A stretch of 9,424 nucleotides of DNA from a virus (Duplodnaviria; Heunggongvirae; Uroviricota; Caudoviricetes), in the IMG/VR virus record IMGVR_UViG_2671180846_000014; one strand, 5' to 3'. Shown here one piece after another: positions 701 through 9,424 of the stretch. The number at the start of each line of letters is the position of its first letter. The stretch's first letter is position 1. Made by a program: the position numbers and the translations under genes. The notes under the pieces are model-generated. The model was not told the origin of the DNA. It was given only the letters and a program-made list of their open reading frames with translations, and ran no database searches.

Positions 701-995
701 TTAAGTGCGGGTGCGTTGAGGATGCCTGACACATCAGCGGTGGCGAGGGATTTCTCCCCCGCCNNNNNNNNNNNNNNNNNNNNNNNNNNNNNNNNNNNNN
801 NNNNNNNNNNNNNTGGGCCTCAGATTAATGTTAAGCGTCTTGCAGGACGCGTAATGTTAACTGGGGCTTTTCTCTGTCTGCCTTACGGTGGCATGCCCGA
901 GGCAGACAGCCTCAAGCACCCGCAGCAATTCTACTTAACTCTCGCTTTACAGCAAACCGTTTTGCCCGATATGGGAATTCCCATACGGAATGAAT

Positions 996-1100
996 TCAGT
1001 TCCCCAGGCGCTCCATCAAAAACACAACCAGGCAGTAAACACCCACAACAGCAATAACAGCCAGAGCGCCTTCCATTACCAGTGAAATATCATCCGACAT
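996..1100 (-). CDS. small hydrophobic peptide (34 aa), single predicted TM helix
   Basis: Not in the ORF track (below its length cutoff). Minus-strand ATG at 1098-1100 is preceded by AAGGGAGGG with about 5 nt spacing. Translation MSDDISLVMEGALAVIAVVGVYCLVVFLMERLGN, stop TGA at 996-998. Confidence 0.4.
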   Translation of the reverse strand: MSDDISLVMEGALAVIAVVGVYCLVVFLMERLGN

Positions 1101-1209
1101 ATTCCCTCCCTTGGTGTGAATCCCGGCGAACGTTTTTACCCCCACCGACAAATAACATATACTAGAAAAGCAATAGCTATAGCAACGCCTGCAAATGCAT
1201 CTGGCCGGC

Positions 1210-1773
1210 TCATTGGTTCTCCCCCTGTGTCGCTTCTACTGCGATCTGACTGGCGTATTCGTTAATGGTAACGATAAGTTCTTGCTCGGCCTCATCCAGA
1301 CAACTACCGATACCTCGCCTGTCCACTTCAGAAGCATCGAAATCTGCACGAAGCCTGGCGACCTTCAGGATTGCGGACAACACCTCATCAGGGATTGCCG
1401 GAGAGTTGGTTGACGTTTCCGAGATTATCCGAAAATTATTGGTTGACGAACCCTTATTTTCCCGAAAGTTTCCAGCCTGAAGCATGGCGGCGCGGTGACA
1501 CCAGATAATCCAGCCAAGCGCCATATCCCATGCCATGTATTCTCTATCGCCATTTTTTGCTCTGCGGCGATCTACAGATTCCCCGAAACGCTTCTCCATA
1601 AATAATTCATAGGCTGCCCGTTCATCCGATACTGATGCCAGTGATGCCAGTGCAATTTTTAATGCGGTAAGCATGTTGTTTTGATCTTCATCGAGTCCGA
1701 ACGGTATTTCATCCCGTGATGACTCAATTCCGGTAATCGTGTACTGTAGCCATTCTTTGGTTAATTCAGTCAT
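1210..1773 (-). CDS. hypothetical protein (187 aa)
   Basis: Track ORF with ATG start at 1771-1773 and TGA at 1210-1212. Separated from the upstream gene by a 126-nt intergenic region. No recognisable family. No canonical SD; a hairpin sits 9 nt upstream of the ATG. Confidence 0.55.
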   Translation of the reverse strand: MTELTKEWLQYTITGIESSRDEIPFGLDEDQNNMLTALKIALASLASVSDERAAYELFMEKRFGESVDRRRAKNGDREYMAWDMALGWIIWCHRAAMLQAGNFRENKGSSTNNFRIISETSTNSPAIPDEVLSAILKVARLRADFDASEVDRRGIGSCLDEAEQELIVTINEYASQIAVEATQGENQ

Positions 1774-1781
1774 TTTTCACT

Positions 1782-1799
1782 ACCGCCCTTTCGGGCGGT
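1782..1799 (-). other. GC-rich hairpin (7-bp stem, GAAA tetraloop on minus-strand RNA) just upstream of the 187-aa ORF start
   Basis: Plus strand aCCGCCC-TTTC-GGGCGGt; no U-tract follows on either strand, so it is not a classic terminator. It occupies the position where an SD would be. Confidence 0.4.
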
Positions 1800-1899
1800 C
1801 TCCTGATGTTCTGAGGGTGCAGGAATCCCTCCGGTTAAGGATTTAATAAAAATCATTTCTGATTTAAATTTTCAGTGTTTAGTTGTTGGTTTATAGCCT

Positions 1900-2211
1900 T
1901 TATGCTTCGGCCTTATTTCTCAGCCATACACAAACAGGACCATCTTCGGTGTCATGTATCGAACCGATAAACCATCCCTCACCTTCTGGTCGCTCAGGTT
2001 CCCATGCTGAAATATCAGGGCCATCTGCGTCCAGATTAAAATCATCTTCATCCATACTACGGATAGCCCACTGAAGATTATTTTTCTCCATCCAGGCGTT
2101 AAACTCTTCCGTTGAAATATATTCCCGACCATCACAGAATTTTTCATATTCAGGATGCGTCCAGCAGCCATATTCATTACGTTCCACTGGCATTTCTTTA
2201 ATTGCGCTCAT
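1900..2211 (-). CDS. hypothetical phage protein (103 aa), acidic with conserved Trp residues; possibly DUF551-like
   Basis: Track ORF. ATG at 2209-2211 overlaps the upstream stop by 4 nt (ATGA) and is preceded by AAGGGGGG. Family assignment is from memory only. Confidence 0.6.
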   Translation of the reverse strand: MSAIKEMPVERNEYGCWTHPEYEKFCDGREYISTEEFNAWMEKNNLQWAIRSMDEDDFNLDADGPDISAWEPERPEGEGWFIGSIHDTEDGPVCVWLRNKAEA

Positions 2212-2396
2212 TTACCCCCCTTATTTAATTTTCTACGACACTTTTTACAATCATCTGGACTTTCGAATGTATCCGGCTCACGCTCATTGCCAAAATACAT
2301 CCACCCACCGCAAGTACTTGTTATTTCACCTTCAGCAAAATAATGATGCTTTTTCGCCATAAGTGGCCTTGCCCAGCCCGGATTCGTTTTACTCAC
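2208..2396 (-). CDS. small Cys/His-containing protein (62 aa), possible zinc-binding
   Basis: GTG start at 2394-2396 preceded by GGAGG at 6 nt; overlaps the upstream stop (GTGA). Contains HH, C-GG-W and C-KK-C motifs. Confidence 0.55.
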   Translation of the reverse strand: MSKTNPGWARPLMAKKHHYFAEGEITSTCGGWMYFGNEREPDTFESPDDCKKCRRKLNKGGK

Positions 2397-2749
2397 TTGT
2401 TGCCTCCTTTGCGAAGCTCTGCGACTAACTCGTCACATATGTGCGTCAAAGAGCAAAGTTTGATTGCTGGATGTTCGCGCACCATCTCCACACCCTGCGC
2501 CCGCAATTCTGCCAGAAAAGCGTAGGGGTCAGTTTTTTCACTGTGGTACATGGCATCATAGATAATCATTGCAGCGACACCTGCCTGTCCTGCATCTGTG
2601 ACGGATATATGCTCAAGGGCTACGGCCATTGCGTGTTTCAACCTCTCATTTTCCACCTCAAGCACCACACGATTAGCCTCCAGCTCTTCTATGCGTTTTT
2701 TTGCTGCTCCCAGCTCAACACGCAGCTCCTGATAGTTAATCTCGCTCAT
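2393..2749 (-). CDS. hypothetical protein (118 aa), predicted N-terminal coiled coil
   Basis: ATG at 2747-2749 preceded by GGAGGAAGGAG; 4-nt overlaps with both neighbours. N-terminus ELRVELGAAKKRIEELEANRVVLEVENERLK is heptad-like. Confidence 0.65.
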   Translation of the reverse strand: MSEINYQELRVELGAAKKRIEELEANRVVLEVENERLKHAMAVALEHISVTDAGQAGVAAMIIYDAMYHSEKTDPYAFLAELRAQGVEMVREHPAIKLCSLTHICDELVAELRKGGNK

Positions 2750-2970
2750 TCTCCTTCCTCCCGCACTGCTGTTTTATATGCCCGAAGCACATGCGATGTT
2801 TTTCCTGACACAGTGCTTCTCAGAAAGAAAATTCCACTGGTGTTTATTACCAGATACGGGTCAGCAAGACGCAGCATATCCAGTATGTGATTATGTTTTC
2901 TTGTTTCCAGCACCGTACTGGAAATAAGCATATGTGACACGGGGCCGAAATCATGATATCTGATTTTCAT
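2746..2970 (-). CDS. hypothetical protein (74 aa)
   Basis: ATG at 2968-2970 with a GGTGA-type SD; stop overlaps the start of the next gene. Confidence 0.5.
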   Translation of the reverse strand: MKIRYHDFGPVSHMLISSTVLETRKHNHILDMLRLADPYLVINTSGIFFLRSTVSGKTSHVLRAYKTAVREEGE

Positions 2971-2991
2971 ATCATCACCCTGCTGTAAAAA

Positions 2992-3681
2992 TTACCCGTT
3001 ATCTCCTGTCGTTATTTTCTGTATGACATCACGATGCTTATTAATTTCCCGCAGCGCGGCGCATAAGCGCTCCCACTTCTGAACCTGACCTTTTGCCCGG
3101 CGCAGCTCGCGGTTAGCCACATGCAGCGATGGTAAAATCAGACCATCCGGATGCTTTCTGATGAACGACGACTGTGACTGCACTGTGACCGCCACACTTT
3201 CAGTTTTAATTTCTTCCTGTGTTTCCGCTTCCCGGACTGGTAACGCAACACCTGCCGGCTGAGGAAAGGCTTTACCATCGGTTTCCGTTACCGATGCAGC
3301 TTTCGGCTCTGCCGGTAAATTATCGCCCGGTATGCAGTAACGATATTGACCGTCCTGATTTACGCGAATCAGACGACCTTTGCTGACAGCCATCGCCAGT
3401 GATGAATTCGCCCGGCGGGAGGTAATCCCGAACATTAACGCCAGTTCGTCAGCCGACTGAGGACCATGCTGTTCAATCGCGTTAATCAGCATCTCTGCAG
3501 TGGTTTTTGGGGCCGCTTCAGTTGCCTCACTCGTCAGCCACCACATCGACCCCTTGTTATCAGCTTCGCCACGACGCTTCAGCTTCCAGAGTTCGGTAAC
3601 AGCATCGTCACGGCTGATTTCAAGACGGGCTGCAATCTCGTGCGACGAGGCTTTTTTCAGTGCTTTCAGTGCGTCAAAAAC
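2992..3681 (-). CDS. hypothetical protein (229 aa) with two winged-helix-like segments; possibly DUF1627-like
   Basis: Track ORF 2992..3756 trimmed to the ATG at 3679-3681 ([11 protein letters not shown]...), which has GGAGG 8 nt upstream; the longer form would overlap the P-like gene. Two HTH-like stretches ([26 protein letters not shown] and [29 protein letters not shown]). Confidence 0.65.
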
Positions 3682-3724
3682 GGTTTCCATTAAATTTTCC
3701 TCCCGGTAAAAATTACTTCTCAAC

Positions 3725-4285
3725 TCAGACAAAACCGGCCGCCTTCCGGCGCTCATATTCCTGTTTCAGCAATTCAATTGGCGTTGGCCCTGGCGGGCGT
3801 TTGGGTGCTGCCAGTTGTCGCCGGACTGGCGGAACACTGAGGCCATTACCAACATGCTTTGCCCATTTCGTCAGCTGCCTTTCCACAAGCCGTTTTAACT
3901 CCCCTTCGGTCATCTGGCGCTCAATCCCCTTTGAACGCATCTCGAGGCAAATGTGGTACAGCACCGGCTGTGGCCACGGGTATTTATCACTCCCGTCGTA
4001 CCGCCAGGATTCATTCCTCCAGCGACGGTATTCCTCCATCACGGCATCCACCGTCAGGCCAAATGGATTTGCCCCGCTCTCCGAAATCAACGCCACAAAC
4101 TCAGCCAGATCCGGAGGCCACGTTTCACCCGCCCGGCAGCGGTCCATGCACCGACGGCAGATCTGCCGGATTTGCTGTTCAGTCATCGCGCCAATCTGAG
4201 CAATCCAGAGTTTCGACGGCGCAGCCCCGTTCTTCTGAGTCCAGCGGTTCGAATACACCTCCCCCATAAGCTCCCACAGCTTCCA
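3725..4285 (-). CDS. phage replication protein P-like (helicase loader); 5' end in or next to masked run
   Basis: C-terminal two-thirds aligns by eye with lambda P ([11 protein letters not shown]...[16 protein letters not shown]...[16 protein letters not shown]... versus lambda ENGITTMEQVN...FLPSPGQFVAWCREE...YPWKSNAHYWLVTNLY). Stop TGA at 3725-3727. True start is either the ATG at 4265-4267 (GGAG 4 nt upstream) or inside the N run 4286-4335; the track's 4381 start is a TTG. Confidence 0.65.
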
Positions 4286-5081
4286 NNNNNNNNNNNNNNN
4301 NNNNNNNNNNNNNNNNNNNNNNNNNNNNNNNNNNNGTGAAAACCTTCCCCTCCGCCATCCAGTAATCCCGGAATGCGGCAAGCTCAGCAGGTGTAAACTC
4401 AGGCTCAGGCAGAGCCATACCCCACACTGCTGCCCGCTGTCGAAAATCCGGCGACGGTTGCCAGACTCCAGTCATCGGAAATTTCCCGATCGGTTCGCTC
4501 AGGCCGTCCAGGTATTCAGGTTCGGCTGTCTGCAACGACGCGTCATTCAACTCACCGGTCGTAGCACTCTCGCGCATGCGCGCGTTATGTGTGGGGTTTA
4601 ATTCTTTATCTGTATCTGTATCTGTCGTGATTTGTCGTGACATATGCGTGACGCGTCGTGACTCATCGTGACAATCAGTGTTCTGCTTCCGCAGTCTTTC
4701 CCGCTCCCGCTGCGCTCTCTTGCGCTCTGCCGGGGATTTTGCGGTTTGCGAAACATTACCGTTATCCTCCTTCATCACCTGGCGTTTTTCCCATCCGGAA
4801 ATAAGATCACCATCCAGAACTCGCCCCTGCATTGCATGCAAAATTGAATCAATCACGTCTTCCGTCACATCAAGCGCACTTGCTAAATCTTCCGTCGTGA
4901 CATCAATGTGACCACGTAGTGACACGCCGTGACATGTCGTGACATTTCGTGACGCACTCACCAGAAGGTGGATATACACCGCCATCACTGTTGCGATTGG
5001 CTGTCCTGAGACCCTGGCAATGGTTCGCCATTTGGGATCATTTGGCATGTCATGCCACAATCTGAGCCAGGCATTAGCCAT
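4286..5081 (-). CDS. replication initiator candidate (O-like by position and embedded iterons); 3' end hidden by masked run
   Basis: ATG at 5079-5081 (MANAWLRLWHDMPNDPKWRTIA...) with GAGGTGA upstream; the track's extra MS comes from a GTG. Frame is open to the N run. Immediately precedes the P-like gene. Contains two phased GTGAC repeat arrays. Family (DUF1376/YdaU-like?) is not certain from memory. Confidence 0.55.
4607..4672. repeat. iteron-like array 1: (TATCTG)x3 followed by five CGTGA(C) repeats at 10-11 bp phasing
   Basis: CGTGA starts at 4626, 4636, 4647, 4657, 4667; TATCTG at 4607, 4613, 4619. Lies in frame inside the O-like CDS (encodes ...RRVTHMSRQITTDTDTD...). Confidence 0.6.
4896..4953. 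repeat. iteron-like array 2: six GTGAC repeats at 10-11 bp phasing
   Basis: GTGAC starts at 4897, 4908, 4919, 4929, 4939, 4949, same orientation as array 1. One inverted GTCAC at 4864-4868. Inside the O-like CDS N-terminal region. Confidence 0.6.
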
Positions 5082-5149
5082 ACTCACCTCATCTGATACC
5101 GAACTTTACCCTCGAACATCCGGAATAAATCCGGCATGAATATTGTTGG

Positions 5150-5575
5150 TCAATGCACGACAACAGCATTACCAGGCTGACCACCACTGTTAGTCAGGGT
5201 GCCCCAGGCGATCGCCGCTGCGACAAAATCATCCACATCTTTCACCAGCCGATCCCTCCGTTCGACGATCTCACGGTAATATTCAGAGCTGTGACTGCGC
5301 ATACGGGCCACCAGCAGAGGCGGCATTGCCTTTTCGATCGCCGGTAACAGAGCCTGAATTTTTTCAACAGCATCAGGGGTGTCTTTATCCAGCCAACGGA
5401 AAATTTTCTGGGTATTACGAGCCAGGGCTTCCGGATGGCTGTCGTCGTACAGTTCCGGGAACGTCATCCCCAGCTCGAAATAAGTCCGGGCTATTTCAGC
5501 TGCAGGAACTTTCTCACCGTCCGGATAGGCCCAGGCATTGATCGCCATGCGGATGTGCTCATGTTTGATTTTCAT
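5150..5575 (-). CDS. YdaT-like protein at the CII position (141 aa)
   Basis: ATG at 5573-5575 overlaps the Cro-like stop (ATGA); TGA at 5150-5152. N-terminus MKIKHEHI... resembles the YdaT family from memory. Sits between the cro-like and replication genes. Confidence 0.6.
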   Translation of the reverse strand: MKIKHEHIRMAINAWAYPDGEKVPAAEIARTYFELGMTFPELYDDSHPEALARNTQKIFRWLDKDTPDAVEKIQALLPAIEKAMPPLLVARMRSHSSEYYREIVERRDRLVKDVDDFVAAAIAWGTLTNSGGQPGNAVVVH

Positions 5576-5799
5576 GAATCCCCCTTTCCTTCGCCCTGAG
5601 TGGTATCCTTCTTTTTGTAAAGTTCTGGGTTCAAAGATAATTTCCCCTTGGAGTATGCAGCAGCTTCCGCAGCCCTCCCCTTCGGAACTATTTCACCAGG
5701 ACGCTTACGCCACATGTAAATAGCTTCGCGGGTTATCCCATAAAAATCGGCAACCCTCTGAACAGAACCAAAAAACTGGACAAGTTCATCAACTCGCAT
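5572..5799 (-). CDS. dicC: Cro/DicC-like small HTH repressor (75 aa)
   Basis: ATG at 5797-5799 with GGAGG 6 nt upstream. Divergent from the CI-like gene. Motif VQFFGSVQRVADFYGITREAIYMWRK...VPKGRA resembles DicC/Cro-family proteins recalled from E. coli Qin prophage. Confidence 0.8.
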   Translation of the reverse strand: MRVDELVQFFGSVQRVADFYGITREAIYMWRKRPGEIVPKGRAAEAAAYSKGKLSLNPELYKKKDTTQGEGKGDS

Positions 5800-5893
5800 T
5801 TTACCTCCTAAATCTAAGTATTTTTAGATTACAAGATAATTTTTTTTAGGTCAATGCAATCTAAAATAATTTATATTCAATTTGCAGGAGAAA
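5800..5893. promoter_or_regulatory. divergent promoter/operator region (PR/PRM-like) with two operator-like palindromes
   Basis: AATCTA-N8-TAGATT at 5811-5830 and AATCTA-N8-TATATT at 5858-5877. TATATT (5872-5877) is a plausible -10 for the repressor gene. For the cro side, TTGACC (complement of 5849-5854) is a possible -35, though the matching -10 is weak. AT-rich. Confidence 0.55.
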
Positions 5894-6541
5894 ATGATGG
5901 AAAGCCTTGGCATCAGGCTTAAGAGACTTAGAAAAGATAAGGGGCTGACCCAAGTAGAACTGGGTAAGCTTTCAGGCGTGACTGGGGTTACTATAGGGTA
6001 CTGGGAGAAAGATCTAAACGAACCAGGTAGCAAAGCTCTAAGTAAGTTAGCCCAGGCATTAGGAACTACTGAGTCCTATCTCCTATATGGAGTATCGTCT
6101 CCTGAATTATCTTTTGTACAAAGTACCTCAGGCACCAAGATCCCCTACCTTTCGTGGGGTGAGGCGATTTCTTTCCTAATCTTAAAAGGAGAGAAAACAA
6201 TGGGAAATGTCGATAGGATCACCACATTCTTTGATGTCGAGGAAGGTGATTTTGCCGTTTCAATGCCTGATGACACAATGCATAACCCATCAGGATCACC
6301 GAGTATCCCAGTTGGTGCTACTGTGATCCTAAGGCCAGGAGAAAGTTATAAAAATGGCAGCATCGTCGCTGTAATAGTTCCGGATCCGCTTAAAAATGAA
6401 CCATCTATGACTATAAAGAAATTAGTTATTGATGGGAAGCTTGTGTATTTAAGCCCTCTCAATCCACGCTATCAGTCATCCTTACTTACACCAGAGTGTA
6501 AAATTGTTGCCGTAGCAAAAGGTGTACAGTTCAACTTATAA
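5894..6541 (+). CDS. CI-like prophage repressor: XRE-type HTH plus LexA/S24 peptidase domain (215 aa)
   Basis: ATG at 5894 with AGGAG 5 nt upstream (the track start at 5882 is a TTG). N-terminal HTH LTQVELGKLSGVTGVTIGYWEK. C-terminus strongly resembles lambda CI (TIKKLVIDGKLVYLSPLNPRY versus lambda [21 protein letters not shown]), with a candidate Ser (AVSMPDD) / Lys (IKKL) dyad. Confidence 0.9.
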   Translation: MMESLGIRLKRLRKDKGLTQVELGKLSGVTGVTIGYWEKDLNEPGSKALSKLAQALGTTESYLLYGVSSPELSFVQSTSGTKIPYLSWGEAISFLILKGEKTMGNVDRITTFFDVEEGDFAVSMPDDTMHNPSGSPSIPVGATVILRPGESYKNGSIVAVIVPDPLKNEPSMTIKKLVIDGKLVYLSPLNPRYQSSLLTPECKIVAVAKGVQFNL

Positions 6542-6560
6542 CCCGCCACGTCCTTTACTT

Positions 6561-6588
6561 GAGGTCGGCAATGCCGACCTTTTTTTTT
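6561..6588 (+). terminator. Rho-independent terminator after the repressor gene
   Basis: GGTCGGC-AAT-GCCGACC followed by T9 (6580-6588), 20 nt after the stop at 6539-6541. Confidence 0.8.
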
Positions 6589-6593
6589 AAATT

Positions 6594-6636
6594 AATCTAG
6601 ATTTATCTTGACTGAAAAACTAAATACTTTTAGATT
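6594..6636 (+). promoter_or_regulatory. PL-like promoter with overlapping operator copies (candidate repressor-controlled promoter of the ydfA-dicF-dicB operon)
   Basis: -35 TTGACT (6608-6613), 17-nt spacer, -10 TAGATT (6631-6636). Operator-like AAACTA-N8-TAGATT at 6617-6636 closely matches the 5811-5830 site. Perfect palindrome AATCTAGATT at 6594-6603. Confidence 0.5.
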
Positions 6637-6816
6637 TATTACATACCACCCTACCTCGCCCCACAGAACGTCGGGCAATACCTCGAGTTACCCGGCAGTG
6701 GTCAGGGGTTAAGTAGCCAGCCCGAGGCGTATGAACATGACGGCGGGAACACTTTGTATAACAGCGCAGCAGGTTTTTAGTTCCGCGACCCGGCGTTAAG
6801 GGTAAATGAGGTCAAC

Positions 6817-6969
6817 ATGGATATGCTCAATCTTGGCAACAATGAATCTCTGGTGTGCGGAGTATTCCCCAACCACGACGGCACGTTTACCGCGATGACG
6901 TATACCAGAAGTAAAACGTTTAAAACCGAAGCTGGCGCGCATCGCTGGTTAGCAAGAAACGCTAACTGA
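6817..6969 (+). CDS. ydfA: YdfA-like small protein (50 aa)
   Basis: Not in the ORF track (below cutoff). ATG at 6817 with GAGG 6 nt upstream; translation MDMLNLGNNESLVCGVFPNHDGTFTAMTYTRSKTFKTEAGAHRWLARNAN. Position (first gene after the repressor, upstream of dicF/dicB) and sequence match my recollection of Qin YdfA. Confidence 0.55.
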   Translation: MDMLNLGNNESLVCGVFPNHDGTFTAMTYTRSKTFKTEAGAHRWLARNAN

Positions 6970-7140
6970 TTAGCGCCAGTAAAAACAGGTTTCCACAGGT
7001 TAATTTACCCTGAAAAGTCAGGGCATAACACGAAAGCGCACGGCGAGATCCCTTTGCATATAAGTCTTGTCGTTAAATTTCTTCGACCGTGCGCTTCTGG
7101 TTGTGGCAATCCGCGAAATGGCGCGGCGGTAAGTATGGCG

Positions 7141-7340
7141 GGGTTATTCCTTCCCCCATTGAGGACACCGGGTTGTCAGGTTGACCATACGCTTAAGTGA
7201 CAACCCCGCTGCAACNNNNNNNNNNNNNNNNNNNNNNNNNNNNNNNNNNNNNNNNNNNNNNNNNNGGGTTATTCCTTCCCCAGTTGAGGACACCGGGTTG
7301 TCAGGTTGACCATACGCTTAAGTGACACCCCCGCTACAAC
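7141..7340 (+). repeat. two near-identical 75-bp copies (7141-7215 and 7266-7340) separated by a masked 50-nt run; each holds a 9-bp-stem hairpin
   Basis: GGGTTATTCCTTCCCCCATTGAGGACACCGGGTTGTCAGGTTGACCATACGCTTAAGTGACAACCCCGCTGCAAC versus the second copy with 4 substitutions. Internal inverted repeat GGGTTGTCA...TGACAACCC. Confidence 0.7.
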
Positions 7341-7356
7341 GCCCTCTGTTATCAAT

Positions 7357-7415
7357 ATTCTGGTGACATTTGGCGGTATCAGTTTTACTCCGTGACTGCT
7401 CTGCCGCCCTTTTTT
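7357..7415 (+). ncRNA. dicF: DicF small RNA homolog (ftsZ-targeting prophage sRNA) with its intrinsic terminator
   Basis: ATTCTGGTGACATTTGGCGGTATCAGTTTTACTCCGTGACTGCTCTGCCGCCCTTTTTT matches my recollection of E. coli DicF with 2 differences in the 5' part. Ends in a GC stem (GGCGG...CCGCC) plus T6. Lies upstream of the dicB-like gene as in the Qin dicB operon. Confidence 0.7.
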
Positions 7416-7419
7416 AAAA

Positions 7420-7569
7420 GTGAATTTTGTGATGCGGTGAATGCGGCTCAGCGCACGCGGAACAGTTAAAACCAAAAACAGTGTTATGGGTGGATTCTCT
7501 GTATCCGGCGTTAATTGTTAACTGGTTAACGTCACCTGGAGGCACCAGGCACCGCATCACAAAATTCAT
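7420..7569 (+). other. long-range inverted repeat (19/20 nt arms at 7420-7439 and 7550-7569) bracketing the dicF-dicB spacer; candidate RNase III processing stem
   Basis: GTGAATTTTGTGATGCGGTG (7420-7439) is the reverse complement of CACCGCATCACAAAATTCAT (7550-7569) except for one terminal base. Smaller hairpins lie between (CGTTAA...TTAACG, CCTGG...CCAGG). Confidence 0.5.
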
Positions 7570-7585
7570 TGTTGAGGACGCGATA

Positions 7586-7774
7586 ATGGAAAAGTTATCA
7601 TGTAATGCCAGCACGTCTGAACTTCGTTTCGAAATTGGCGTTATCACTGGAGACAAAACATTTATTGAAGACGCCATTAAGCAGAGAAAACTCGAGCAGG
7701 ACCTGTTAAATGAAGTATGCATTCCTTCAATGCTGGCTCGTCTGGACCTGCTGCAAAAAGGATATAAACAATGA
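7586..7774 (+). CDS. dicB: DicB-like cell-division inhibitor (62 aa), copy 1
   Basis: ATG at 7586 (track ORF 7481..7774 trimmed). MEKLSCNASTSELRFEIGVITGDKTFIEDAIKQRKLEQDLLNEVCIPSMLARLDLLQKGYKQ resembles K-12 DicB as recalled (...NVNTSEGCFEIGV...FTEDAI...RK...LL...SMLARL...). Stop overlaps the ydfD-like start (ATGA). Confidence 0.8.
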   Translation: MEKLSCNASTSELRFEIGVITGDKTFIEDAIKQRKLEQDLLNEVCIPSMLARLDLLQKGYKQ

Positions 7775-7962
7775 ATACAACATTTGCACTCGTTCTGACA
7801 GTTTATCTTGTTTCCGGCGAATCTCTTGAGCTGGTGACTGGCTTATACGGTTCAATGAAAGAATGCATGGCTGCAGCAGCAGAACAAAAAATTCCCGGTA
7901 ACTGTTATCCGGTAGATAAAACTACTCACACTAATAATAACGAAATACCGGCAGGACTTTAA
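7771..7962 (+). CDS. ydfD: YdfD-like small membrane/lysis protein (63 aa), copy 1
   Basis: ATG at 7771; hydrophobic N-terminus FALVLTVYLVSG; C-terminal EQKIPGNCYPVDK...NNEIPAGL resembles Qin YdfD as recalled. Translationally coupled to the dicB-like gene. Confidence 0.75.
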   Translation: MNTTFALVLTVYLVSGESLELVTGLYGSMKECMAAAAEQKIPGNCYPVDKTTHTNNNEIPAGL

Positions 7963-8055
7963 AACAGCACCGTAATTAATATCCGGTTTCATTTTTATAT
8001 GCCAGCAATGGCAGGGATTTGTTCACCCTTAAATCTGTAATGAGGTTAAAACAAA

Positions 8056-8092
8056 ATGAGTAAAGTCTTTATTTGCGCCGCCATTCCGGACG
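8056..8092 (+). pseudogene. ydfE-like 5' fragment (12 codons, MSKVFICAAIPD) ending at masked run
   Basis: Identical to the first 37 nt of the ydfE-like gene at 9132. The track fuses it in frame through the N run to the type-2 dicB paralog, which is probably an artefact of the masked junction. Confidence 0.4.
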
Positions 8093-8142
8093 NNNNNNNN
8101 NNNNNNNNNNNNNNNNNNNNNNNNNNNNNNNNNNNNNNNNNN

Positions 8143-8313
8143 AACGTTAATACGTCTGAAGGTTGTTTTGATATTGGTGTTCTGCTCAGTAACCGGGAGT
8201 TTACGGAAGATGCCATTAAGATGAGAAAATATGAACCTTATCTTCTCAATGATAATTCCATACTTTCCAGAATTGCCCTTCTTGAACTTGGTATTATCGG
8301 AGAACAGCAGTGA
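8143..8313 (+). CDS. DicB paralog (diverged, type 2); 5' end hidden in masked run
   Basis: Visible part NVNTSEGCFDIGVLLSNREFTEDAIKMRKYEPYLLNDNSILSRIALLELGIIGEQQ, stop TGA at 8311-8313. Shares the NVNTSEGCF-IGV and FTEDAI-RK motifs with DicB but differs from copy 1 across much of its length. Confidence 0.6.
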   Translation, partial: NVNTSEGCFDIGVLLSNREFTEDAIKMRKYEPYLLNDNSILSRIALLELGIIGEQQ

Positions 8314-8498
8314 CTTCAGCATTTGCACTGGTGATGACCGTTTTTCTTATAACGGGTGAGCCACAAAATGTGATTACCGGAATTTATGACAGTAAGTCAT
8401 CCTGCATTCAGGTAAGGGACGAACAAAAAATCCCCGGTGAATGCCTCCCGTTAAAAAAAGTATCGCTGAACCTGAATAACGAAATACCGGCTGGATAA
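8310..8498 (+). CDS. YdfD paralog (diverged, type 2; 62 aa)
   Basis: GTG start at 8310 overlapping the upstream stop (GTGA). MTSAFALVMTVFLITGEPQNVITGIYDSKSSCIQVRDEQKIPGECLPLKKVSLNLNNEIPAG is diverged from copy 1 but shares the hydrophobic N-terminus and the EQKIPG...NNEIPAG C-terminus. Confidence 0.6.
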   Translation: MTSAFALVMTVFLITGEPQNVITGIYDSKSSCIQVRDEQKIPGECLPLKKVSLNLNNEIPAG

Positions 8499-8661
8499 CC
8501 CGCCAGCCATATTAACGCCATACCAACGGATTAAAAATGCCAGCAATGGCAGGGATTCGTTCACCCTGAAATCTGTAATNNNNNNNNNNNNNNNNNNNNN
8601 NNNNNNNNNNNNNNNNNNNNNNNNNNNNNGCATCACAAAATTCATTGTTGAGGACGCGATA

Positions 8662-8850
8662 ATGGAAAAGTTATCATGTAATGCCAGCACGTCTGAACTT
8701 CGTTTCGAAATTGGCGTTATCACTGGAGACAAAACATTTATTGAAGACGCCATTAAGCAGAGAAAACTCGAGCAGGACCTGTTAAATGAAGTATGCATTC
8801 CTTCAATGCTGGCTCGTCTGGACCTGCTGCAAAAAGGATATAAACAATGA
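8662..8850 (+). CDS. dicB: DicB-like cell-division inhibitor (62 aa), second type-1 copy
   Basis: Identical translation to 7586..7774; lies within direct-repeat copy C. Confidence 0.8.
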   Translation: MEKLSCNASTSELRFEIGVITGDKTFIEDAIKQRKLEQDLLNEVCIPSMLARLDLLQKGYKQ

Positions 8851-9038
8851 ATACAACATTTGCACTCGTTCTGACAGTTTATCTTGTTTCCGGCGAATCT
8901 CTTGAGCTGGTGACTGGCTTATACGGTTCAATGAAAGAATGCATGGCTGCAGCAGCAGAACAAAAAATTCCCGGTAACTGTTATCCGGTAGATAAAACTA
9001 CTCACACTAATAATAACGAAATACCGGCAGGACTTTAA
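8847..9038 (+). CDS. ydfD: YdfD-like small membrane/lysis protein (63 aa), second type-1 copy
   Basis: Identical translation to 7771..7962. Confidence 0.75.
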   Translation: MNTTFALVLTVYLVSGESLELVTGLYGSMKECMAAAAEQKIPGNCYPVDKTTHTNNNEIPAGL

Positions 9039-9131
9039 AACAGCACCGTAATTAATATCCGGTTTCATTTTTATATGCCAGCAATGGCAGGGATTTGTTC
9101 ACCCTTAAATCTGTAATGAGGTTAAAACAAA

Positions 9132-9424
9132 ATGAGTAAAGTCTTTATTTGCGCCGCCATTCCGGACGAACAGGCAATAAAAGAAGAGGGCGCAGTTGCT
9201 GTAGCCACTGCCATTGAAGCCGGTGATGAACGCCGCGCCCGTGCCAAATTTACCTGGCAATTCCTGGAGCAATATCCTGCTGCTCAGGACTGCGCTTATA
9301 AATTTCTTGTCTGCGAAGATAAACCTGGCATGCCCCGCCCTGCTATCGACTCCTGGGATACCGAATATATGCAGGAAAACCGCTGGGATGAGGAATCCGC
9401 TTCCTTTATTCCGGTCGAACCAGA
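9132..9424 (+). CDS. YdfE-like protein by position, partial (runs off window end)
   Basis: ATG at 9132; open frame to the window end (MSKVFICAAIPDEQAIKEEGAVAVATAIEAGDERRARAKFTWQFLEQYPAAQDCAYKFLVCEDKPGMPRPAIDSWDTEYMQENRWDEESASFIPVEP...). Follows dicB-ydfD as ydfE does in Qin. Sequence family not verified. Confidence 0.55.
   Translation, partial: MSKVFICAAIPDEQAIKEEGAVAVATAIEAGDERRARAKFTWQFLEQYPAAQDCAYKFLVCEDKPGMPRPAIDSWDTEYMQENRWDEESASFIPVEP

Follow-up and report, generated by a model that had tools for sequence, protein, structure and literature searches.

An apparent duplication upstream of dicF in a prophage scaffold, and the single conserved RNA module behind it

Phage HK022 provides a precedent for an early phage RNA that acts in cis: its put RNA suppresses downstream terminators via the zinc-binding domain of the beta-prime subunit of RNA polymerase. 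Closer to the locus described here is the precursor of the small RNA DicF. In Escherichia coli K-12, DicF is processed from the polycistronic transcript of the dicB operon (PMC10448788, citing Faubladier et al. 1990). A cut by RNase III sets the 5′ end of a 190-nt DicF species, which is detected in stationary phase, and RNase E then converts this species to the 53-nt DicF; the dicF terminator ends part of the transcripts (PMC10448788). In the DicF papers examined, the stretch that is cut away is treated only as precursor sequence. A four-way fold, compensatory changes and an occurrence without DicF are not described there; Faubladier and Bouché 1994 may note upstream conservation.

Our work concerns a stretch of viral DNA of 9,424 nucleotides (IMG/VR record IMGVR_UViG_2671180846_000014; hereafter the window), in which two copies of a 75-bp structured element appear to lie in the leader of dicF. 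Taken as a whole, the locus is very probably best explained by an artefact of scaffolding that hides a single, real RNA module upstream of dicF.

Scaffold spacers and the apparent tandem repeat

The duplication had been proposed by a sequence-only reading of the window, and the strings on which it rested are present as given. Positions 7141-7215 and 7266-7340 are identical at 71 of 75 positions (4 mismatches) with a start-to-start spacing of 125, and the 9-bp stem GGGTTGTCA/TGACAACCC was found in each copy, with 1 mismatch in copy 2. What did not hold is the genomic duplication. Fifty of the 125 bases are N (7216-7265), and the copies are alleles of two prophages. The stretch 7216-7265, when checked, was N throughout, with no bases hidden in register and no continuous sequence through the junction.

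The window contains six N runs, each of exactly 50 N (258-307, 764-813, 4286-4335, 7216-7265, 8093-8142 and 8580-8629). Segments 1-257, 308-763, 814-4285 and 4336-7215 are each 100% identical to one prophage of E. coli O26 strain E2865 (prophage 1, L004); in that reference, the stretches under the three intervening N runs measure 98, 224 and 185 bp. The N runs do not preserve length and therefore are fixed-size scaffold gaps rather than 50-bp masks, as judged from the reference lengths. On the same lengths, the run at 7216-7265, to which no strand applies, is read as a spacer between two contigs. Short-read contigs break at multi-copy repeats, and the two hidden reference segments that were searched are multi-copy in the E2865 genome, with 2 and 3 places, respectively.

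The prophage identity switches at this spacer. Segment 4336-7215 ends at position 9072 of the prophage 1 reference, and the next segment starts at the equivalent of its position 8998, which gives an overlap of 75 bp. From 7266 onward, the sequence is only 86% identical to prophage 1, and 7266-8092 is identical at 827 of 827 positions to 8001-8827 of a second prophage, located beside yccA in the same O26 genome (prophage 2, L003). The copies differ at four positions because they are alleles of these two prophages, and the 125-bp register arises because the 75-bp overlap is followed by the 50-N spacer. The module to which the 75-bp unit belongs occurs at 5-7 places per listed O26 genome, and therefore contigs break there; in pathogenic E. 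coli genomes we found up to 8 matching places per genome.

Could the source genome nevertheless carry a true 125-bp tandem, the remainder of the unit, such as a partial dicF, being hidden by the 50 N? The literal spacing in register would fit, and some stretches of sequence collections are masked as N. A tandem of this kind predicts that 7216-7265 copies 7341-7390. A composite query of 7341-7390 followed by 7266-7340 produced only two-piece matches in the natural order when searched against complete E. coli genomes, an outcome that carries no information on tandems; from this query it also emerged that the second O26 prophage matches copy 2 plus dicF at 100% identity. We regard a true tandem as very unlikely, because the three other N runs that could be measured in the window stand for lengths other than 50 bp, each copy carries the allele of a different prophage and is matched at 100% elsewhere, copy 2 has no 5′ third of the module, and no tandem was found in 98 loci or three collections.

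The search for tandem copies of the unit in prophages and phages returned a single copy everywhere examined. A covariance model scan detected one module copy in 98 of 98 loci, and alignments showed one copy each in the O26 prophages, the K-12 Qin prophage and phage Tritos. Pattern searches requiring two 31-nt cores also came out empty; the allowed spacing was 1-135 in viral contigs and 75-105 in those from genomes and metagenomes. In the window itself, the module is complete at 7098-7217 (138 bits, model positions 1-121; covariance model R1). The match of the same model to copy 2, at 7281-7342, reaches 45 bits and is 5′-truncated by 60 model positions, as the second contig begins partway through the module; the intact module of prophage 2 itself scores 130.5 bits. 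The proposals of a duplicated module, a pair of protein-binding sites and a duplicated small RNA thus lose their object, copy 2 being the start of a contig from another prophage.

We are nearly certain that the 75-bp duplication is an artefact of unmerged contig ends. On this explanation, the window is a scaffold of short draft contigs from an E. coli O26:H11-like strain with several similar lambdoid prophages, in which fixed 50-N spacers join one contig to the next. One contig stops at 7215 and comes from one prophage, the next starts at 7266 and comes from another, and their ends overlap because both reach into the same conserved multi-copy sequence. Left unmerged and separated by 50 N, such ends look like two copies 125 bp apart. 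The duplicated structured element as it was originally stated is not a real feature and should be dropped. Moreover, the window is a chimeric scaffold in which any repeat flanking an N run is suspect. N runs can be assembly gaps, and in-register repeats that flank them are not to be trusted.

Another repeat is present further downstream, where 7554-8092 equals 8630-9168 exactly. This 539-bp direct repeat has an offset of 1076 and carries dicB-like and DUF1482 genes; 43-nt copies at 7999, 8537 and 9075 lie within or near it. Its two copies map to overlapping parts of prophage 2 (L003 8001-8827 and 8289-9083), with an overlap of 539 bp. Between them are two N runs and a 437-bp contig, which matches neither prophage well and is probably a third prophage variant. 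The 539-bp repeat is a scaffolding artefact and not a gene duplication.

Near the start of the window, a match to the sok antitoxin RNA (RF01794, 59.7 bits, gathering 59) at 732-921 on the minus strand runs across an N run. The reference has hokD under the gap within this interval, which is a hok/sok type I toxin-antitoxin locus partly hidden by the gap.

The single module in the leader of dicF

The leader follows a DUF1391 (ydfA-like) gene at 6817-6969 on the plus strand, which is 100% identical to L004 8674-8826 (annotated as WP_000367376.1) and is the first gene of a dicB-type early-left operon. All leader features described below are on the plus strand. Two hairpins reported by the sequence-only reading were both found in the window. 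One is a small hairpin at 7008-7023, which reads CCCTGA-AAAG-TCAGGG in the sequence and marks the start of the conserved leader; it is kept in K-12, Tritos and both O26 prophages and is also part of the predicted K-12 leader fold. The other is the 10-bp stem 7034-7043/7087-7096 (inverted repeat I5, 10/10), which forms the core of a long interrupted hairpin at 7025-7107; folding of the K-12 homologue likewise gives an extended stem. This long hairpin is the predicted RNase III site that would make the 5′ end of the 190-nt DicF species.

The complete four-way-junction module occupies 7098-7215, as delimited by covariance model R1 (138 bits) and the RNAalifold consensus, and the copy 1 of the earlier reading (7141-7215) is the 3′ two-thirds of it. 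After the spacer, the window resumes with the 3′ two-thirds of the module from prophage 2 (copy 2, 7266-7340, assigned by its identity to L003). Next comes an A/U-rich linker at 7341-7357, which contains the putative RNase E cut for the DicF 5′ end according to the alignment with K-12 dicF. The dicF small RNA and its intrinsic terminator, in the prophage 2 allele, follow at 7358-7409 (Rfam RF00039, 77 bits, gathering 48); the 75-nt unit lies outside this match.

A 24-nt inverted repeat (I1, 92% complementary) spans 7416-7573, with arms at 7416-7439 and 7550-7573. The arms enclose the dicF-dicB spacer, the second one stopping shortly before the dicB-like gene starts at 7586. From its sequence, this repeat is possibly the RNase III site reported for the 3′ end of a 72-nt DicF; it could also block access to the ribosome-binding site of dicB. 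The dicF-dicB spacer of K-12 (L006 2433-2642) gave a sub-threshold match to the Rfam family STnc100 (34 bits versus a gathering threshold of 47, E = 1.8e-5).

How does the module relate to the K-12 precursor? If 190 nt are counted upstream from the 3′ end annotated for dicF, the start falls at about position 7095, in the 3′ arm of the long hairpin, and by the same calculation the 75-nt unit is nt 46-120 of the 190-nt species. The alignment shows that the unit has its homologue in K-12 Qin and belongs to the 137 nt that precede the 5′ end of DicF-53. With a computed 5′ end near 7095, the module would therefore be the body of the 137-nt 5′ extension that is removed. The element had been placed where K-12 has ydfB/ydfC. 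This placement has to be revised, as K-12 Qin has the same leader of about 300 nt between ydfC and dicF, the whole of it within the 340 nt that separate them. The prophage in the window has no ydfB/ydfC, and the leader does not replace these genes.

The module measures about 116 nt (about 7100-7215) and ends 17 nt upstream of dicF. We collected 70 distinct versions of it from phages, prophages and viral contigs and used 27 representatives for a consensus. The consensus fold obtained with RNAalifold is a four-way junction of 30 pairs, 8 of which have double changes. The closing helix is GUUGUGGC/GCUGCAAC. The other helices are a hairpin CCGCG/CGCGG, a GGU/ACC helix enclosing a variable hairpin, and a long hairpin that consists of the previously reported stem extended by AGG/CYU and that has the invariant loop UUGACCAURCG.

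Several helices change in a compensatory manner. The closing helix becomes GUUGUGGU/ACCACAAC in Ayreon-type phages. The variable hairpin takes the forms GGGG/CCCC, CUGGGG/CUCCAG, CCAGGUG/CACCUG and CGAGG/CCUCG, and GGU/ACC is replaced by GGC/GCC in P7. In the long hairpin, U-A becomes C-G in P1-like phages, which keeps the 9-bp stem paired. Across 56 distinct sequences, 96.7% of cells are paired in an alignment that was fitted to the covariance model, compared with 36-61% when the partners are slid; in the same set, 8 pairs have double changes, compared with 0-3 in the slid controls. Lambdoid phages, P1/P7 and an Actinobacillus phage all share two essentially invariant stretches, GGCGCGGCGGYAAGYAUGGC and CAGGUUGRCCAURCGC. 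The folding z-scores are modest (-1.3 to -2.9). No Rfam family covers the module, either in a scan of the window at the gathering threshold or in a scan of the K-12 leader at E-values up to 5.

The four-way topology recalls a tRNA. However, the arm lengths are unlike those of a tRNA, and ARAGORN found no tRNA or tmRNA-like gene in the window; a tRNA-like reading was rejected. By eye, a CCA stands 1-3 nt past the closing helix in many downstream classes (AGCCAC, AACCCAUG, AUCCAUG, UUCCAG) and recalls a tRNA-like 3′ end. It is missing in the DicF type (GCCCUC) and in two Salmonella-type classes.

The compensatory changes also bear on whether the unit could be protein coding, either as a remnant of ydfC or as a small open reading frame on the minus strand. 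A hypothetical protein is annotated on the minus strand over the module in several phage records, and of 54 distinct modules 36 keep one frame of this strand open. The same frame is closed in the other 18, the plus strand has no open frame across the module, and the variability has no three-base periodicity. In addition, the alignment shows indels in the variable hairpin, RefSeq has no gene at this position, and K-12 ydfC ends about 200 nt upstream of the module. Together with the lack of an open plus-strand frame, the distance from ydfC rules out a ydfC remnant, and we consider a coding function extremely unlikely. As to open reading frames in the window, it had been stated that a 21-codon frame is the only one touching a copy and that none of 60 aa or more lies between the ydfA-like gene and dicF. 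Several frames of 30-49 aa in fact touch the copies, and a minus-strand frame of 68 aa (7269-7475) overlaps copy 2 and dicF.

The single element, part of a known precursor, is real, and the literature examined does not seem to describe its conserved structure. Of the interpretations offered earlier, those that depended on duplication fell, and the view of the element as a structured, non-coding part of the dicF precursor stood.

Occurrence beyond dicF and possible functions

The module is not confined to dicF loci. It is present in phages Ayreon, 2H10 and cdtI as well as in Stx2c-converting phages, in which it is followed by a different terminator hairpin without the DicF seed, and it occurs also in a Salmonella phage and an Actinobacillus phage. 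In Ayreon (L015 2501-2675), the Stx2c phage (L016) and 2H10 (L023), the module precedes the terminator hairpin GGCGGUACCAG...CUGGUACCGC and a U run; other contigs have further linker variants after the module. Loci of the Ayreon, Stx2c and 2H10 types resemble members of one DicF-like small RNA family in which the seed differs and the leader is shared. In P1/P7-like phages, the module starts about 20 nt downstream of the C1-controlled Pban promoter (P1, L019 2488-2604, corresponding to about 68726-68842 of NC_005856; P7, L022). Only 8-12 nt separate it from the terminator stem, and tRNA-Asn, tRNA-Thr, tciABC, tRNA-Ile and ban follow. In each of the 16 classes whose downstream sequence was long enough, a hairpin and a T-run follow 27-83 nt after the module, and the linkers differ between classes. 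With a lambda-type nut site in mind (boxA, then a boxB hairpin to which N binds), the only features visible by eye are a GCUCU-like stretch just 5′ of the module in some classes and the 7008-7023 hairpin.

What could be the function of the module? Our tentative proposal, which we would not yet call probable, is that it serves as a cis-acting maturation or stability domain of the DicF precursor. RNase III would cut in the long hairpin just 5′ of the module, and RNase E would cut in the A/U-rich linker 3′ of it. As the body of the 137-nt 5′ extension that would be excised, the module may leave the precursor with a folded and protected 5′ end once RNase III has cut, and offer a single-stranded linker to RNase E. 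Because the same module in other phages precedes a terminator and differing linkers, some of them without the DicF seed, it may be a cassette that phage small RNAs close to terminators share for their biogenesis. Some observations sit uneasily with this proposal. RNase III and RNase E need no invariant loops, yet two stretches of the module are essentially invariant, and invariant loops fit a specific partner better than a passive scaffold. Furthermore, the short linker of P1/P7 leaves no obvious small-RNA body to mature, and the modest folding z-scores also weigh against a maturation domain.

The invariant loops, kept across distant phage types, would be easier to understand if the module itself were the functional product, an abundant structured early non-coding RNA that starts at the de-repressed promoter, stops at the neighbouring terminator and binds a host or phage factor, the DicF seed having been added later in the linker. 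The P1/P7 arrangement, which runs from the promoter over about 20 nt to the module and over 8-12 nt to the terminator and has no seed region, is consistent with this idea, as is the detection of the 190-nt species in stationary-phase K-12. We think it unlikely, since no partner or Rfam family is known and RNase E turns the 190-nt form of K-12 into DicF-53. A host partner, which the invariant loop and junction sequences suggest, could also be RNA polymerase. The module might then be a put-like processive antiterminator, or an attenuator, that acts on the polymerase or the adjacent terminator, early transcription passing the dicF-type terminator into dicB, exo, xis and int and, in P1, into the tRNAs and ban. 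In support of such a role, the module is always downstream of a repressor-controlled early promoter and 27-83 nt before a terminator with early genes beyond, and the annotations of the loci examined name no N gene. The one downstream ORF of Ayreon that was checked as a candidate N-like antiterminator is a phrog_204 member of unknown function and lacks an arginine-rich motif.

Comparison with HK022 bears on the same point. The HK022 putL site contains GCGCGGCGG and CAUGCG of the two invariant regions of the module, and putR contains GCCCGGCG and AUACG. These common motifs (9 nt and 6 nt) are short, GC-rich and in the opposite order, and they may be due to chance, for which a rough hand estimate gives a few percent for a 9-mer match. 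A BLAST search with word size 7 and a search with covariance model R1 with filters off found no similarity between putL or putR and the module. Moreover, the module is a four-way junction of about 116 nt, compared with two stem-loops of about 70 nt in put, the rightward operon has no second copy, and the K-12 dicF terminator does end part of the transcripts. Hence, a put-like or attenuating role seems quite unlikely to us. In the HK022 reference (L018), putL is located at about 742-815 on the minus strand and putR at 1955-2030. We also looked by eye for a riboswitch-style pairing between module and terminator; the only possible pairing is GGCGG/CCGCC, which is missing in P1, and it was rejected as a general mechanism.

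Returning to the tentative maturation role, a control of DicF-type maturation or of terminator read-through by the module would make it a control point for prophage cell-division inhibitors in pathogenic E. coli. It is doubtful, though conceivable, that the module represents an undescribed class of phage structured RNA that extends over lambdoid prophages, P1/P7, and Salmonella and Actinobacillus phages. If this were true, the RNA may act on RNA polymerase or the terminator, put-like on a different scaffold, or serve as a shared platform from which small RNAs with exchangeable seeds are made. The single module merits modest follow-up in its own right.

Comparison with known systems

The artefact is of a familiar kind. 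In drafts scaffolded from unmerged contig ends, as here, the spacer has a fixed length that does not equal the true gap, the ends overlap in a multi-copy repeat, the prophage identity switches at the spacer, and further perfect repeats stand beside neighbouring spacers; we see no difference between such cases and the window.

The HK022 put RNAs resemble the module in being structured RNAs of a lambdoid early operon that are positioned after an early promoter and before terminators. They differ in number, as HK022 has a left and a right copy and the module is present once per phage. A closer likeness is found in P1, where the Pban leader contains a stretch labeled "dicF-like region" in the genome record (NC_005856 68791-68892). 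The same module is present there (covariance model score of 92 bits, 78% identity), and, as at the dicF locus, it lies just after a repressor-controlled early promoter with an intrinsic terminator next to it. Unlike the dicF locus, P1 has another terminator, no DicF seed and a 7-nt insertion near the closing helix, and its downstream genes are tRNA genes and ban instead of dicB.

The nearest known relative is the 5′ extension of K-12 DicF-190 (Faubladier et al. 1990; Ragunathan et al. 2023, PMC10448788). The K-12 dicB operon has ydfB/ydfC, which are missing from the prophage in the window. In both, however, the extension has the same position relative to dicF, with 90-97% identity, a long hairpin where the RNase III-dependent 5′ end reported for K-12 falls and an A/U-rich linker where RNase E is reported to cut in K-12.
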